Virus record (IMG/VR): IMGVR_UViG_3300027699_000001
Span: 1 to 63,615 of that record
Direction: 5' to 3' (one strand)
DNA length: 63,615 nucleotides
Source of the DNA: a virus
Lineage: Duplodnaviria; Caudoviricetes
Shown here: positions 10,662 through 62,640 of the stretch, piece by piece
Position numbering within the stretch: the first letter of the stretch is position 1
How the letters are laid out: the number at the start of each line of letters is the position of its first letter
Made by a program: the position numbers and the translations under genes
Notes under the pieces: model-generated
The model's database searches: none
What the model saw: the letters and a program-made list of their open reading frames with translations, nothing else
Told to the model about the DNA's origin: nothing

Positions 10662-10718
10662 ATAAGCCTCCTATCTAAAGCTATACATTGTATAGTATAT
10701 ACTTAAGACAGAGAAATG

Positions 10719-11762
10719 TCAACCTATATTTTGAAGATTTACATATGTAGGCGTAGCAACTGTAACTCCATCTACTACTGATGCTCGTACTTGAGTCATT
10801 GTAAGACCCAAATCTCCTGTAACTCTGTCATCTACATTACTACCGTCTGTATCAGCATCATTCCATTCAAATCTAAAAACAACAGAATTAGTTGAGAGTA
10901 ATTTAGCTTTTATTGTAAAATTATTTTCTGCGTAATTTGGAGCTGATCCTGATTTTGAAAAAATGTCTTGATAAGATGTAGTTAACTCATGAAACCCTAT
11001 AGCTGATGCAACTGTATGCGGCCCTGTAGCAGTAGTAGTTGTACTATGCACTTTAAAAGAAATAATTCCAGAATTTGTTATAATTGCATCCCAATCTACA
11101 TCTTTTTGATTGGTGGATTCATTTGTTAATGCAGAAGACATATTTATAACACCTCCTGTATTAAAAAAGTGACGTCGATGATCTTGGGTAGTTGCTGCAA
11201 TATCGATTCCATCGTCAGTTTTACATATATATCCGCCGGCAAAAACTAATTGAAATTCTGCACTTAATCCTGCAGCAGGCCAATCAGAAGTATATGACGC
11301 ACCTGTATCAGCCGATTGTACTTTTGTTTCTAGAACTGTTTGTGTAGCATGTACTGTTAAATGATCTACTTCAATTGCAGGAATAAGCGGTGGAATATCA
11401 TTTACACCTTTTGTAGCATCTGGATTAACAACTGTAAATGTATCTGGTGTTCCTGGTGTACGCTGAACAGTGTCTCCTGATCCTGTATTTGACTCATCTG
11501 CTCCTATAATATTTCCGGATACTATCTGATTAATTCCAATGGATGTATTAAATTGATGCCCATATACCATATTAAGATCTGTAAATAATCCACCCCATTG
11601 ACCTGCGGTTATATCATCTACGCCGGCCGGTGCTACCATTCCAGTATTAGCCATAGCTTGACCATAACCTTTATCACCTGATCCTATGCCTAGAATAAGA
11701 TTTATACGAGTAACAGCGTCATTATGTTCAGTAATTTCAACATTATCACCTGGTGAAACCAT
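10719..11762 (-). CDS. Virion structural protein (fibre/baseplate-associated), paralog of 11830-12732
   Basis: G/T/S-rich. Shares GxGxxGYGQ, RRHFFNTGG, KDxDW and FxKSGS..NYxEN with its neighbour. Confidence 0.65.
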   Translation of the reverse strand: MVSPGDNVEITEHNDAVTRINLILGIGSGDKGYGQAMANTGMVAPAGVDDITAGQWGGLFTDLNMVYGHQFNTSIGINQIVSGNIIGADESNTGSGDTVQRTPGTPDTFTVVNPDATKGVNDIPPLIPAIEVDHLTVHATQTVLETKVQSADTGASYTSDWPAAGLSAEFQLVFAGGYICKTDDGIDIAATTQDHRRHFFNTGGVINMSSALTNESTNQKDVDWDAIITNSGIISFKVHSTTTTATGPHTVASAIGFHELTTSYQDIFSKSGSAPNYAENNFTIKAKLLSTNSVVFRFEWNDADTDGSNVDDRVTGDLGLTMTQVRASVVDGVTVATPTYVNLQNIG

Positions 11763-21700: not shown

Positions 21701-24700
21701 TTCATTAAGGTTTGTTATTACAAATACACCTGTTACTCTATCAAATTTAACAATAGTGTGCATACTTCTAACTAAACCTTCACCTATAACAGCAACTAAT
21801 CTAGCACCAGTACCATCTCCATTAACTTCAATAACCGGTGCGTTTAAATAACCCGACCCTGGTTTAGTTACTTTTGCTGATACAATTTCACCATTAGCTC
21901 CTAAAGTTGCTATTGCTTTTGCACCAGACCCTACATCTGCTATAGTACTGTCGCCATCACTAAAGATCAAATCTGGTGGGAATGTATAATTTTTGCCGCC
22001 ATCAGCTATTTTTACTGAAATTACTTGATAAGTTAAATTATCTAACCAATTTTTGTTTGGATATGTACTTAATTCTGGAGTTTTTCCTACAATAATATTA
22101 TCTATTACTTTTGCAGTATGCGGAATAATTGCTTTTGCAACATTACTATAATTAGGTGACAAATCAAAGTCAGTTATTAAGTTTTTACTAGGTTCTAATG
22201 CATCATAATCACTTACATATTCTCGTAACTTAGTTTTAAATGGTTTAACTTCTTCTAAATATTCTTCATAACTAGCCAAGTTATCATTTTGAAAGGTAAT
22301 TTTTTCTTCAAGATTTCCTACATTGTGCTTTGCTTTTACAAAACTTGTTTTAAATGCCCAATCTACATAAGATTGTTCTGAGAAAACATAACGTATACTA
22401 GATAAGAACATATTATTATATTCTACAGCTAACTCATCAATAAACACTTTATCCCGTAACGTTTCTAATATTTTTCTAGTTTCAGAAACCGGTTGATTGT
22501 CATAAAATTTTGTATCATAGCTTACACTATCATAACCTATTGTTGTTGCACTATCATATAAACTAGACAAAAACTTTAATGTTCCACTTTCTCTACCTAC
22601 AGTTTTATAATTTATAGTATAATCAATAAAATCTGCATCATCTATTTTTTCTAATAAAAGCCAGCCGCCTGATCCTATATTAGCTATTTTAACTATATCT
22701 CCAGTGTCATCATCTAATCCTTGTAACTGATGACTTGCATCTATTAAATAATCAATTGTTGTAAATTCATTATAACCTGTATCATACCAATCTACATAAT
22801 CCCAAAATAAAGAAACATCAAATGCTTGACTTTGTATTCTTTCCCAATCCGTATTGGCAGTATTTCTTTGATATAATGCCCATTTACCTTGCAAAGTGGA
22901 ATCACTTTTTACTAAAACTGTAAATTGTCTGACACTTATACTAGTAGTACTAGTATAATTCTGTCCTTCATTAATAACAGCAACTTCAGTAACAGCACCT
23001 ACACTATTAATTGTTAATTGAAATTTTGCATCAATTCCGTCTCCTGAAATTGTGTATGTAGGAGTTACAAGATAACCTCTACCAGGCTCTGTTATATTAA
23101 CTCTTATAATTTTTCCATTAGAAACTACAGGTTCTAATAAAGTCTTCGTAATTTTAACTGTACCTACACTATCTAATTCTTCTAAAGTACTAATCGATGT
23201 ATCAAATACATAACTACTTACTGTAGGCTCTGGTTCTTTAGATGATAATCCTGTAATATCTTTATCATCTATGATTAAATTCTTTAACAATATTCCATTA
23301 ATTCTTTCAATTAATTGTTTAAGAGCTTCTTCTCTATTAACAAACCAAGTTTGTCGAGGATCATTTAAAATTCCATATTTTTCTCTCGGAGATAAATTTA
23401 AAGCTGGAACTGGCCTACCAAAATCATCATATCCTACTAAACTATCAAACCACTTACGTTCAATATCTTTATTAGGTTTACTAGTCTCTAGTCCTTCTGT
23501 GAATAATTGGTATTGATTATGAATATTAATATTTTGATTTTCAATAATCCAATACTCAGTACTAAATGCTATATCTTTTCCTTTAATAAGATTATCACAA
23601 TTATGTATAACAAAACTACTAGGACTTATAAAATTAACAAATTTAAGACCTTGAGCTGCTGGATCCTTAATATAATTTTCAACGTCTGCACAACTAAGAG
23701 TGCGGAATTCTGCATCAGGTACAGTTGCTTTTGCATTAACCCAATAATAATACATGTTTGAAAAAGTTTGAGATACTGAATCATACTCTCGCATAGCAAC
23801 AAACATGCTATCACCATATTTAGATTTTCCACTAACTCCTTCTGTTATACCTTCTTCTGTATCTGATAACTCATCCCATTCTGATGGAAGATACTTAGTT
23901 CCTACCCACTCATAAACTTTTATAGAATTTCCAGGGAATAATTTATTCCAATTATTAGTACTATAAATTGTATTCTCTTGATATGGATTTAAAAATCTTG
24001 CTTTATCTAAATCCCACCATAATTGATTTACTTGATATTTCCCCCAAGTATTTGTGTTACTGACAGTAACATCGCTTGCCAATAAAGATAGATCTTCATT
24101 AGTTAAATTATAAACAGCAGGGTCATAATATAATTTATATTTTAATTCTTGATCTGCTATTCCTGCAATTTTTCCTTGAATTGGATCAATACAATCTAAA
24201 TATGTTATAAAATCATTTGTTTTAGAATCATAAAGGAAAAGTTTCTTTATTTTATGAACATCTACAGTATCTTTAGGAACACGATGTTTTTCCCATATTT
24301 TAGTTGAAGTTATTTTTCTATAATCACTAATTGATCCAATATAATTTGTATCAACAGAAACATCTGGTAAACCGATATACACATGATTTTCATTCACATA
24401 TAAATTAGTACCAAACTTACTAACAGATAAATTTTGTGTTGTAGAATCTACTCTTTCAAAAGCCAACGGTTGACCATATACCATTGTATCATTAATTTTT
24501 TCATACAAATATACAGTACCAGTATCTACATATAGTTTAGCAAATGACGTAAAATCATTATCAAAAACAGTTTGCGGTACTAAAGGTGCCTCTGGATCTA
24601 AATTAGTATCAAAGGTAGTATGACCTATAAAATCTGTATTTTTAGCAGTTATGGCTAATGTATCCTCTCCAAATGCAACTTTTATTCCAAACAATTCTAC

Positions 24701-59974: not shown

Positions 59975-61144
59975 ATGTCAGAACTACTAGAAAGTCGCTG
60001 GCAGGATACCAAAGGTGCCCTTCTTGAAGGCCTTATAGGCACAAAGAAAGCCGTTATGGCAACTACTCTGGAAAATACTCGTAAGTATTTGTCAGAAGCT
60101 GCTACTGGTGGCGCTACTTCTGCCGGAAATGTCGCAACTCTTAACAGAGTTATTTTACCCGTTATTAGACGTGTAATGCCAACCGTTATTGCTAACGAAT
60201 TAGTTGGTGTTCAGCCTATGACAGGTCCCGTGGGACAAATCCACACTCTGCGTGTTCGCTATAGCGACACCAATGATAATGTAGTAGCTGGTGAGGAAGC
60301 ACTTTCCCCATTCAAGATTGCTACAGCATATTCAGGTACTGGTACAGACCCAGCAGGCGTTGCAGATGCAACGGCTACGTTAGAAGGGTCAGCTGGTCGA
60401 AGAATGTCAATCCAGATCATGAAGCAAACTGTTGAAGCAAAAACTCGTAAGTTGTCAGCTCGCTGGACTTTTGAGGCTGCTCAGGATGCACAATCACAGC
60501 ATGGTATTGACGTTGAAGCAGAAATTATGGCTGCTTTAGCACAAGAAATTACCGCTGAAATTGATCAGGAAGTTCTCAATAGCCTAGGTACCCTAGCTGG
60601 TACGGCTGCTGAAACATATGACCAAGCTGCTGTAAGTGGTACTGCTACTTTTGTTGGTGATGAACATGCTGCTTTAGCTGTTCAAATCAATCGCGTTAGC
60701 AATTTAATTGCACAACGTACACGTCGCGGTGCAGGTAACTGGTGTGTTGTTAGCCCATTTGCGTTAACAATTCTACAGTCTGCAACAACTTCAGCTTTTG
60801 CACGTACCACAGAAGGTACTTTTGAAGCTCCAACTAACACAAAGTTAGTAGGTACTTTGAATAGTGCAATGAAAGTATATGTTAACACATATGCTGCTGA
60901 TAGTGCCGACGTATTGGTTGGTTATAAAGGTTCAAGCGAATCTGATGCTGCTGCATTCTATTGCCCATACATCCCATTGATGTCAAGCGGTGTAGTGTTA
61001 GATCCTAGTTCATTCGAGCCAGTCGTATCATTTATGACACGATATGGTTACGTTGAGCTTTCTAACTCAGCAAGTTCGCTAGGTAATGCTGCTGATTACT
61101 TGAGTAAAGTAGCAATTACTAACGCTAACGTTAGCTTCCAGTAA
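59975..61144 (+). CDS. gp23: Major capsid protein, T4 gp23-like
   Basis: PVIRRVMP..IANELVGVQPMTGPVGQI, VEAKTRKLSARWTFE.AQD, EIDQE, FYCPYIPL, FMTRYG. Confidence 0.98.
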   Translation: MSELLESRWQDTKGALLEGLIGTKKAVMATTLENTRKYLSEAATGGATSAGNVATLNRVILPVIRRVMPTVIANELVGVQPMTGPVGQIHTLRVRYSDTNDNVVAGEEALSPFKIATAYSGTGTDPAGVADATATLEGSAGRRMSIQIMKQTVEAKTRKLSARWTFEAAQDAQSQHGIDVEAEIMAALAQEITAEIDQEVLNSLGTLAGTAAETYDQAAVSGTATFVGDEHAALAVQINRVSNLIAQRTRRGAGNWCVVSPFALTILQSATTSAFARTTEGTFEAPTNTKLVGTLNSAMKVYVNTYAADSADVLVGYKGSSESDAAAFYCPYIPLMSSGVVLDPSSFEPVVSFMTRYGYVELSNSASSLGNAADYLSKVAITNANVSFQ

Positions 61145-61178
61145 AATGTAAGTTAACAGTTACTTAGGTAACAGAATT

Positions 61179-61206
61179 AAGAGTGACTTCGGTCACTCTT
61201 TTTTTT
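61179..61206 (+). terminator. Rho-independent terminator of the capsid operon
   Basis: AAGAGTGAC-TTCG-GTCACTCTT (cUUCGg tetraloop) followed by a T-run. Confidence 0.95.
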
Positions 61207-61226
61207 GGTTTTTTTTCCAAAATAGG

Positions 61227-61255
61227 TTGACAAACTAATATAGATCATGTATATT
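61227..61255 (+). promoter_or_regulatory. sigma70-type promoter for the downstream RNA
   Basis: TTGACA (61227-32), 17-nt spacer, TATATT (61250-55); predicted start near 61262. Confidence 0.85.
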
Positions 61256-61261
61256 AGTACT

Positions 61262-61508
61262 TGTAATGAGGACGCTCATTACACGGGTTGCAGGGAAGAG
61301 GTGTAGTCGAAGCACCGAACCTGGCTTGTCAGGGGTAGTACCCAGGGGCCTACTCGAAAGAGAACGGTTTCACATTGTGCCTACTAGCACAGGACAAGGC
61401 GTTGCCGCAAAATCGAACAAGGGATTTGGACGGCAGCTGGAGGTAATCCCAAGTCCTTCACCCACCTTTTTTAGAAAGGGCCTAGTACTATTTTGTACTA
61501 GGCTTTTT
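61262..61508 (+). ncRNA. Standalone ~245-nt structured non-coding RNA, unassigned family
   Basis: Own promoter and terminator, clearly higher GC than the flanks, nested helices along its whole length, no credible RBS-led ORF. Confidence 0.8.
61480..61508 (+). terminator. Rho-independent terminator ending the ncRNA
   Basis: GCCTAGTAC-TATTTT-GTACTAGGC followed by TTTTT. Confidence 0.88.
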
Positions 61509-61558
61509 CTTTATTCCTTTCTCAAAAAATCATTGCATACACATTAGTTCTTTGTATG

Positions 61559-61565
61559 ATAAATA
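61559..61565 (+). promoter_or_regulatory. Late promoter ATAAATA
   Basis: Upstream of 61603, after the ncRNA terminator. Confidence 0.6.
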
Positions 61566-61602
61566 CTTTATCAATGAGAGTATACCGCATTAGGATTAAA
61601 TA

Positions 61603-62640
61603 ATGTCAAAAATTTTAAGAGTAGGAAACGGCGACTATAAAATTTTAGTTAAACAAGGAGGTAGTATCACGTTAGATACTACTGATAATGCCCTTGATAA
61701 AACCGGAACAGTTGTAGTTACTGGTAATTTAGAAATTAAAGGAACAACAACCACTGTTGATTCTACCATAGTTACCATTGCAGATAATATTATTGTTCTT
61801 TCTAAAGATAATGTTGCTGCTGGAATTCCTGCTAGTTTAAATTATAGAAGTGGAATAGAAATAGAAAGAGGAAGTTTATTAAATTCCCGTGTAGTATATG
61901 ATGAACAAATAAATTGGACAACAGGTGGTTCTTCAGGTGCAGGAACTTTTACTTTTGAACAAGGAGTTACAACAATTCCTATTAAAGCAAGTGGAATGTT
62001 AAATTCAGGTAGTATCTATTTACAACCCACAGGCGGAACTGTATCTGTAACAAATACTACAAATTATGAAGAACGAGTATATTTTTATGACGGCGGCGTA
62101 GTAACTGATCCTGGAGATGGAATTGTTATAAGAGATGACGACCATTTACCTAATGCAAAAGGTATAGCAGATTATGTAACTTATATTTTAGCCCAAGGTG
62201 CATTTCAAGATAGGATAGAAGAAGGTGCTTATGGGGACGAAACATATGTAGAAACTAAAGATTTTAGTGAAACAGGATTAGAAAGTAATGTAGAAATTGG
62301 CGTAGATGGTAATGCAGTAGGTAACTTTTATTCTAATAGAATAGACTTATTTGATGTAAGAATTGATGCAAATCGAATCTCATCAACAGCTAGTAACCAA
62401 AACTTAATACTAAGTGCTCCTGGTACAGGAACAGTCCAAATTACAGATATTTTAGAAATGTCAGAAACGCCTCATGCTGATGATGTTTCGATTGATCCTG
62501 GAACCCCTTCAGACGGAATAAAAGTTTATTCTAAAACACAAGCAGGCGGCGGCACAGGATTATATTTCGCAAATAAAAGTGCAACCGCCGACGAAATAAT
62601 AAGTAGAAATAGAGCATTAATTTTTAGTATGATATTCTAA
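61603..62640 (+). CDS. Virion structural protein (fibre/neck-like)
   Basis: VVVTGNLEIKGTTTTVDS..TIADNII.L and SGIEIERG, similar to the segment in fibre 14325-16091. Confidence 0.65.
   Translation: MSKILRVGNGDYKILVKQGGSITLDTTDNALDKTGTVVVTGNLEIKGTTTTVDSTIVTIADNIIVLSKDNVAAGIPASLNYRSGIEIERGSLLNSRVVYDEQINWTTGGSSGAGTFTFEQGVTTIPIKASGMLNSGSIYLQPTGGTVSVTNTTNYEERVYFYDGGVVTDPGDGIVIRDDDHLPNAKGIADYVTYILAQGAFQDRIEEGAYGDETYVETKDFSETGLESNVEIGVDGNAVGNFYSNRIDLFDVRIDANRISSTASNQNLILSAPGTGTVQITDILEMSETPHADDVSIDPGTPSDGIKVYSKTQAGGGTGLYFANKSATADEIISRNRALIFSMIF

Follow-up and report, generated by a model that had tools for sequence, protein, structure and literature searches.

A divergent manA-family RNA of an uncultured marine jumbo phage, probably encoded as an autonomous small-RNA gene

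In this study, we explored by computational analysis a structured RNA element encoded between the major capsid protein gene and a 345-aa gene in a 63,615-nt virus fragment (IMG/VR virus record IMGVR_UViG_3300027699_000001, judged 18% complete), the whole of which is called the window hereafter. The window is a fragment of an uncultured marine jumbo phage with a gp23-type capsid, and its RNA gene belongs to the known manA family (Rfam RF01745), of which it is a divergent member, and not to a new class. With a probability of roughly 70%, we consider this family member to be encoded as an autonomous small-RNA gene whose product is stable, self-associating and active in trans. The assignment follows from a cmscan match over the full length of the RF01745 model, which scores 64.6 bits (gathering score 55.2, E 3.7e-14) and is the sole Rfam match across the whole 63.6-kb window. 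A preliminary description of the same DNA had proposed an RNA of unknown class and the best candidate for a new system in the window, and had itself listed a match to a known family among the results that would count against this; the cmscan search against Rfam returned exactly such a match. The supposed new class is thereby removed, since manA has been in Rfam since 2010. What retains interest is the clade-wide gene architecture, the covariation of putative kissing loops and an apparent hotspot of RNA cassettes 3' of the capsid gene.

Family membership, fold and covariation

The features of the RNA gene, all on the plus strand, are listed below; helices refer to the minimum free energy (MFE) fold and helix numbers to the clade model R1 described further on.

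61227..61255 (+): sigma70-type promoter, TTGACA-17-TATATT, 11/12 consensus positions (promoter scan; kept in relatives)
about 61261-61263 (+): predicted transcription start at the foot of P1 (from the promoter position)
61262..61283 (+): P1, 5' hairpin of 9 bp, TGTAATGAG-GACG-CTCATTACA (MFE fold; helix 1, both-side changes in 7/8 pairs)
61265..61469 (+): match to Rfam RF01745 manA RNA, model positions 1-192 of 192 (cmscan, 64.6 bits)
61285..61288 (+): 5' strand GGGU of the outer closing stem, pairing with ACCC at 61460..61463 (MFE fold; helix 2)
61291..61323 (+): P3 arm, CAGG/CCUG (61291-94/61320-23) around GGUGU/GCACC (MFE fold; helices 3 and 4)
61325..61398 (+): P4 stem CUUGUC/GACAAG (61325-30/61393-98), carrying three hairpins (MFE fold; helices 5-9)
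61332-43 (+): P5 hairpin on P4, loop GUAGUA (MFE fold)
61345-71 (+): P6 hairpin on P4, GAAA loop at 61356-59 within CTC-GAAA-GAG at 61353-62 (MFE fold)
61375-92 (+): P7 hairpin on P4, loop CUACUA (MFE fold)
61401..61437 (+): P8 arm, GUUGCCG/CGGCAGC (61401-07/61431-37), with inner stem and apical loop (MFE fold)
61439..61459 (+): P9 hairpin, GGAGG/CCUUC (61439-43/61455-59), 11-nt loop UAAUCCCAAGU at 61444-54 (MFE fold; helix 12)
61460..61463 (+): 3' strand ACCC of the outer closing stem (MFE fold)
61473..61510 (+): intrinsic terminator of the RNA gene, 16 pairs followed by a T-rich tail (terminator scan; MFE fold)

Folded without constraints, 61262-61515 reaches -100 kcal/mol and reproduces every helix of the preliminary description, while shuffled sequences average -72.95 kcal/mol (z = -5.35) and 0 of 200 reach this stability. 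The complete manA consensus architecture, comprising the 5' hairpin, the outer stem, P3, P4 with its three hairpins, P8 and P9, is present in this fold. The square brackets in the RF01745 consensus line, which we take from WUSS notation to mark the outermost nested stem and not a pseudoknot, imply that the manA consensus is itself a short stem closing four arms. Consequently, the "expanded tRNA-like cloverleaf" of the preliminary description stands insofar as several arms are closed off by a short outer stem, but this fold equals the consensus of the manA family and not that of a tRNA. Conserved manA words are only partly kept in the window (Rfam alignment), with GGGAGUG changed to GGGUUG, CUGAAUAA to AGGGAAGA and the P9 consensus GGUA...AAUCC to GGUAAUCCCAAGUCC, which accounts for the modest Rfam score. 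A search for RF01745 in the window's own record and 14 control genomes gave no match, a result that does not show absence; cmscan does match.

To place the element among its relatives, 80 uncultured loci with a capsid identity of 82-91% were fetched, which together with five cultured phages constitute loci L001-L085. Rfam manA scored above its cut-off in 5 of 40 scanned uncultured relatives (L055, L080, L007, L046 and L015), and these five were combined with the window into the clade-specific covariance model R1 (211 positions, 65 pairs), which scores the window with 154.9 bits over 61261-61472. Searching 549 kb on both strands, R1 returned 20 matches at E <= 0.1, all of them on the capsid strand and 107-1018 nt 3' of the capsid gene, 19 of these on related contigs. 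Among relatives having at least 1300 nt of sequence 3' of the capsid gene, 15 of 45 carry the RNA. Of the 19 related loci with a manA-like match, just 5 pass the Rfam cut-off, so that Rfam under-detects this branch. The cultured relatives L001-L005 (Vibrio phage 2.275.O, GAP32, PA5oct, Phosso and XaC1) gave neither an Rfam match at E <= 0.01 nor an R1 match; the spacer 3' of their capsid gene measures only about 90-190 nt. The range of manA-like RNAs now includes uncultured jumbo phages of marine and freshwater origin that have gp23-type capsids.

The fold is real and covaries. Over 19 distinct clade copies in the model-made alignment, 84.5% of cells are paired, compared to 60.3% with shuffled partners (0/500 reach the observed value) and 37-48% with slid partners, and 58 of the 65 pairs show changes on both sides, so that the covariation looked for in the proposed stems is present. 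In the outer stem all four pairs are changed on both sides, for example from GGGU/ACCC to UAUAG/CUAUA in L007 and L046; the P3 helices 3 and 4 are paired to 100% and 90%, and helix 12 of P9 to 100%. An alignment by MAFFT followed by RNAalifold on six copies recovered only 36 pairs, with P1, P6 and P8 misaligned, and was replaced by a structure voted from single-sequence folds, from which R1 was then built.

A classical set was assembled from 80 loci fetched by a word of the Rfam consensus, yielding 55 distinct classical manA copies; Rfam confirms manA in 18 of 20 scanned loci of this set, at 152-197 bits. Within the 80 loci, R1 finds 14 matches at E <= 0.01, 8 of which are also Rfam manA or past the blastn filter. 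Recognition is therefore reciprocal, with the model built from the window's clade recovering classical manA members. As a separate observation, two loci (L110 and L149) hold a manA-like variant below the Rfam cut-off, whose 5' part carries the classical CUGAAUAA word while its 3' part, GGAGGUAACC...CCUCUCACCCACC and a terminator, resembles the window's branch; this variant may be an intermediate between the two groups.

The motif was published in 2010 as a riboswitch candidate, with copies from marine metagenomes and T4-like cyanophages and two from gamma-proteobacteria (Weinberg et al., Genome Biol 11:R31, PMC2864571). The window copy shares with the family the helices P1 to P9, the GNRA loop on P6, the complementary loop pairs L5/L7 and L8/L9 and a phage and marine origin. 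It differs by its score, well below that of classical copies, by its host, a jumbo phage related to Vibrio phage 2.275.O instead of a T4-like cyanophage, and by its location in the spacer 3' of a capsid gene.

Promoter, terminator and predicted transcript

A pattern TTGA[CT]-N16-18-TAnnnT lies within 5-24 nt 5' of the model start in all 20 clade copies, against a background of 0.17 per kb. In the window itself, promoter-like sites are not enriched over 60500-62200 (5 found, 5.1 expected), so that it is conservation among related loci, and not the scan, that supports the promoter. The narrower pattern GGTTGAC-N16-18-TAnnnT occurs at 3 sites in the window where 0.33 are expected; the two further sites, at 10694-10724 on the minus strand and 24468-24498 on the plus strand, are possible host-type promoters. 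A terminator, that is a G+C-rich hairpin followed by a T run, begins 0-8 nt past the model end in 17 of 19 copies, the exceptions being L042, which has none, and L031, in which a tRNA-Gly starts 3 nt after the RNA. The terminator core of the window (61479-61504) is located wholly outside the MFE fold of the RNA. These patterns support an own transcription unit between late structural genes, and the order given in the preliminary description, from capsid terminator over sigma70 promoter, hairpin and core to the second terminator, is borne out at the positions it named, as is every other sequence coordinate that we checked. Early expression, which had also been proposed there, is suggested by a single feature, the sigma70-type promoter.

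In the classical set, the family-type promoter TTGAC-N16-18-TAnnnT, which the window carries directly 5' of its copy, precedes 37 of 55 copies, a terminator follows 21 (compared to the 17/19 of the clade) and a tRNA detected by ARAGORN follows 4. In 5 of 18 classical loci, Rfam places a tRNA directly at the manA 3' end or no more than 49 nt away. Counting the clade locus L031 as well, a tRNA gene starts 0-3 nt after the manA 3' end in L031:4283-4573, L145:2795-3072, L112:2344-2609 and L144:393-659, an arrangement suggesting that RNase P cleavage would set the manA 3' end and leave a stable processed RNA. Judged from these sequence patterns, a putative promoter at the foot of P1 is a general feature of the manA family, with a mixed downstream context. 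Two further regularities were noticed in classical loci: many copies (for example L101, L104, L106, L141, L148 and L155) have a conserved long hairpin AGACCUAAGAUGCAACUC...GGGCAGAUGGUCU and a T run behind them, and the loop of a GAGGG/CCCUC terminator hairpin located upstream often contains the -35 element TTGACA of the promoter.

Downstream of the terminator, a [GT]ATAAATA motif is found in 18 of 19 clade copies (background 0.16 per kb). The pattern resembles the late-promoter consensus of phage T4, TATAAATA, and the window's instance, GATAAATAC, is by this likeness a candidate late promoter of the next gene. What follows varies, being freshwater-2 RNA in many loci, the tRNA in L031, or the 345-aa gene at a distance that differs between loci.

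Contigs from three metatranscriptome studies match the element exactly, over 61277-61457, 61209-61461 and 61274-61461, and none of the three bridges the RNA to either neighbouring gene, which gives a weak hint of expression. The stretches 61070-61208 and 61478-61588 are uncovered by contigs in four runs; such gaps prove nothing.

We propose a model in which the host polymerase, recruited by the host-type sigma70 promoter, would begin transcription at the foot of P1, at about 61262, and would stop at the intrinsic terminator, giving an RNA with a predicted length of ~250 nt. This RNA would fold into P1 followed by the GGGU/ACCC outer stem, which closes a four-arm junction of P3, P4, P8 and P9, the P4 arm bearing P5, P6 with its GNRA loop and P7. 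Neighbouring molecules would be joined by L5-L7 and L8-L9 kissing loops, as in other manA members, and the RNA would act in trans as a stable self-associating particle from the start of infection. For this branch at least, whose unit is compact, self-contained and equipped with a sigma70 promoter, the conservation of promoter and terminator speaks for a small RNA working in trans rather than for a 5'-UTR (untranslated region) switch. Our literature search turned up no account of manA as an autonomous gene or from jumbo phages; promoters, terminators, helix numbering and loop covariation may already be shown in the supplements of Weinberg et al. 2010 and of the 2026 preprint discussed below.

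Loop–loop pairings and competing explanations

Two complementarities between loops had been pointed out in the preliminary description, and both are backed by covariation across copies. L5 UAGUA (61336-40) is complementary to L7 UACUA (61382-86), and L8 GGGAUU in P8 (61421-26) to AAUCCC in the P9 loop (61444-54). Where the manA consensus has L5 GUGGUG and L7 ACCA, contributing UGGU/ACCA, the window has L5 GUAGUA with a compensating L7 UACUA. Across the copies, L5 GUGGU goes with L7 ACC or CCC in 8 of 9 rows and L5 GUAGU with ACUA in 8 of 10, a pattern that reads as a G:C to A:U switch. For L8/L9, a Watson-Crick run of at least 5 is reached with the own partner in 6 of 15 distinct combinations, with partners from other copies in 20 of 206 and with shuffled ones in 572 of 7500, and the words themselves vary by copy (AAUGAUC/GAUCAUU, AGGAU/AUCCU, GAGA/UCUC, CUGAU/AUCAG and GGGAUU/AAUCCC). 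The terminator arms CCUAGUAC and GUACUAGG (61473-61510) repeat the words (UAGUAC, UACUAG) of loops L5 and L7 of the window, which lie at 61335-61340 and 61381-61386, and could pair with these loops; this likeness is probably due to chance, the terminators of other copies being unrelated.

According to a cryo-EM (cryo-electron microscopy) preprint of July 2026, manA RNAs form pentamers, from which decamers, octamers or a T=1 cage of 60 subunits are assembled. The pentamers of the cage-forming manA_A0F1 are held together by the intermolecular kissing loops L5-L7' and L8-L9', and the contacts of manA_pho34_A767 are an L6 GNRA-receptor interaction, L5-L7' and L3-L8' (bioRxiv 10.64898/2026.07.01.735769). 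By helix order, the two loop complementarities of the window appear to correspond to those of manA_A0F1, and its L6 is a GNRA loop (GAAA) like that used by manA_pho34_A767; the assemblies were seen for the solved constructs. Since loop complementarity is kept in the clade and kissing-loop pentamers are described in the preprint, we infer a self-associating particle that would act in trans. The natural covariation of the two loop pairs in turn lends evolutionary support to the in vitro contacts of the preprint. A more far-reaching possibility, which we regard as rather unlikely, is that the RNA assembles in the cell into pentamer-based RNA-only particles, up to the 60-subunit shell, and that the loop covariation reflects selection on intermolecular contacts. 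If this held, manA would provide the first case of a quaternary structure made solely of RNA that serves a biological role in a virus, its particle could for instance sequester or present a host or phage factor, and the label of riboswitch candidate would be wrong for the family.

Several results weigh against an autonomous, self-associating small RNA. The contigs that match the element stem from RNA libraries in which DNA may be present, are of low depth and show neither starts, ends nor strand; one of them (X17, depth about 2) reaches back to 61209, 5' of the predicted start, and one run (X15) yielded exact contigs for the downstream gene and none for the RNA. KATAAATAC, the motif class of the candidate late promoter, is not enriched in the window (5 found against 3.85 expected). 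The alignment behind the pair counts was fitted to the model and favours structure; single-sequence folds of six seed copies independently give the same architecture. Regarding the loops, a run of at least 4 in L5/L7 is found with the own partner in 7 of 12 combinations and with partners of other copies in 41 of 114, which is a modest test; L8/L9 is reduced to 2-3 bp in L007 and L015 and to 3 bp in L052, L061, L080 and L055, and three of the six L8 bases of the window lie within a predicted stem of the MFE fold. Moreover, covariation does not separate an intramolecular from an intermolecular kiss, and the putative match of L5, L7, L8 and L9 to the numbering of the preprint is drawn from helix order. 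The assemblies themselves were obtained in vitro at ~3 mg/mL RNA and 10 mM Mg (bioRxiv 10.64898/2026.07.01.735769). Finally, 30 of the 55 classical copies have no close terminator or tRNA behind them and many of these run into an open reading frame (ORF), which fits the published 5'-UTR reading for those copies.

This last result bears directly on the explanation that manA is a cis-acting leader or riboswitch, with the fold acting as aptamer for a metabolite and the hairpin at 61473-61510 as expression platform for ligand-dependent read-through into the 345-aa gene. Weinberg et al. 2010 rated manA as cis-regulatory and a probable riboswitch that commonly resides in 5' UTRs (PMC2864571), the preprint still calls it a putative cis-regulatory element (bioRxiv 10.64898/2026.07.01.735769), and the succession of aptamer, terminator and same-strand gene in the window is the usual riboswitch layout. 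However, the outer stem is already complete where the terminator begins, the G+C-rich terminator core shares no position with the fold, and the sole alternative pairing found, in a search by eye, for a terminator competing with the aptamer is a 5-bp CCUUU/AAAGG hairpin that competes only with an A/U extension of the stem. In 18 of the 19 copies the [GT]ATAAATA motif intervenes between the terminator and the next unit, which differs by locus and may be freshwater-2 RNA, a tRNA or a gene 100 to over 1500 nt away, and the consulted portions of Weinberg et al. and of the preprint report no ligand for manA (PMC2864571; bioRxiv 10.64898/2026.07.01.735769). The published 5'-UTR reading thus fits many classical copies and fits the window's clade poorly; we consider a switch of this kind unlikely here, and a leader of the next structural gene, which seems to have its own promoter, is disfavoured.

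The outer stem and four arms are arranged as in a tRNA that has a long variable arm, and an ACC follows the outer stem in the window. One suggestion of the preliminary description was a tRNA mimic or decoy; such a cloverleaf-like RNA would be seen by anticodon nucleases or by RNase P, the CCA-adding enzyme and similar tRNA enzymes. In the literature, CMCompare links the manA and tRNA models with 13 bits as a "low-scored cloverleaf consensus", the only published tie that we encountered, and the Rfam description is quoted as placing manA often adjacent to tRNAs; the 2013 authors of that comparison judged the link presumably false (PMC3692125). ARAGORN detects neither a tRNA nor a tmRNA gene in the whole window, and the Rfam tRNA and tmRNA models are absent from the 15 matches at E up to 10 in 61100-61650, in agreement with the earlier statement that this is not a functional tRNA or tmRNA. 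Compared to tRNA and tmRNA (Rfam clan CL00001), with which it shares the short closing stem and the tRNA-like order of its four arms, the window RNA is three times the length of a tRNA and lacks the 7-nt T loop (its P9 loop having 11 nt), the anticodon arm with its loop and a conserved CCA-type end. A tRNA-like CCA end was considered and rejected, since ACC follows the stem only in the window and L055, while other relatives have tails such as CUUGCUUA, CACCCUUAUUC and CAUAUAUUA and the tails of classical copies vary as well. A tRNA that abuts the 3' end, as in L031, or adjoins it, as in 5/18 classical loci, accounts for 3' processing with no need of mimicry. We therefore hold a tRNA mimic to be highly improbable. 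The small stable species 1 and 2 RNAs of phage T4, which are co-transcribed with phage tRNAs, offer a looser comparison: they are likewise phage-encoded, structured, non-coding and located beside tRNA genes, a position in which their ends would be set by tRNA processing, as is manA in L031 and the same classical loci, but the window copy has no nearby tRNA and ends at a terminator, and the likeness is one of description only. As for a protein-coding origin, in which the RNA fold would be incidental, an ATG-initiated frame of 93 codons (61266-61547) does span the element. It has no Pfam or PHROG family match, it is open in the window only, the other 17 copies containing at least one stop in each of six frames, and substitutions preserve base pairs and not codons. 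The coding reading is excluded for practical purposes, and the element is, as the preliminary description had it, a non-coding RNA.

Locus and neighbouring RNA cassettes

The surroundings of the RNA unit, likewise on the plus strand, comprise the following features.

59975..61144 (+): major capsid protein gene, gp23 type, upstream neighbour of the RNA (Pfam, PHROG, identity to Vibrio phage 2.275.O)
61179..61200 (+): intrinsic terminator of the capsid gene, 9-bp stem followed by a T run (terminator scan)
61558..61566 (+): candidate late promoter of the next gene ([GT]ATAAATA pattern)
61603..62640 (+): 345-aa gene, outside the RNA unit (weak PHROG matches)

The capsid gene matches Pfam Gp23 (PF07068, 1.4e-99) and PHROG 138 (major head protein), and its product is 72.5% identical to the capsid protein of Vibrio phage 2.275.O (349 kb). 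Identity to the capsid proteins of the remaining listed jumbo phages, which include GAP32 and PA5oct, is 67-70%. The 345-aa gene has weak matches to PHROG 15769 (function unknown) and PHROG 697 (structural protein) and is syntenic 3' of the capsid gene in 42 of the 85 loci, at varying distance. Compared by blastn with 50,697 phage records, 61150-61600 gave no match.

Other structured RNAs occupy the same spacer in relatives. A glutamine-riboswitch aptamer (RF01739) lies 5' of manA in L010, L015, L030, L046 and L055, ~60-560 nt 3' of the capsid gene, and likewise in 4 of 20 scanned classical loci (L088, L115, L145 and L161), so that both groups share this neighbour and the two RNAs seem to travel together in phages. 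Freshwater-2 RNA (RF02980), which cmscan against Rfam does not find in the window and for which a whole-word literature search turned up no relevant paper, is present in 21 of 40 scanned capsid-related loci (for example L080:4550-4633, L046:5230-5313 and L061:5390-5471), directly 3' of the GATAAATAC motif and either downstream of manA or straight after the capsid gene. Taking the aptamers, manA, freshwater-2 RNA and the variable gene distance together, the spacer 3' of the capsid gene is therefore a variable site that collects RNA cassettes.

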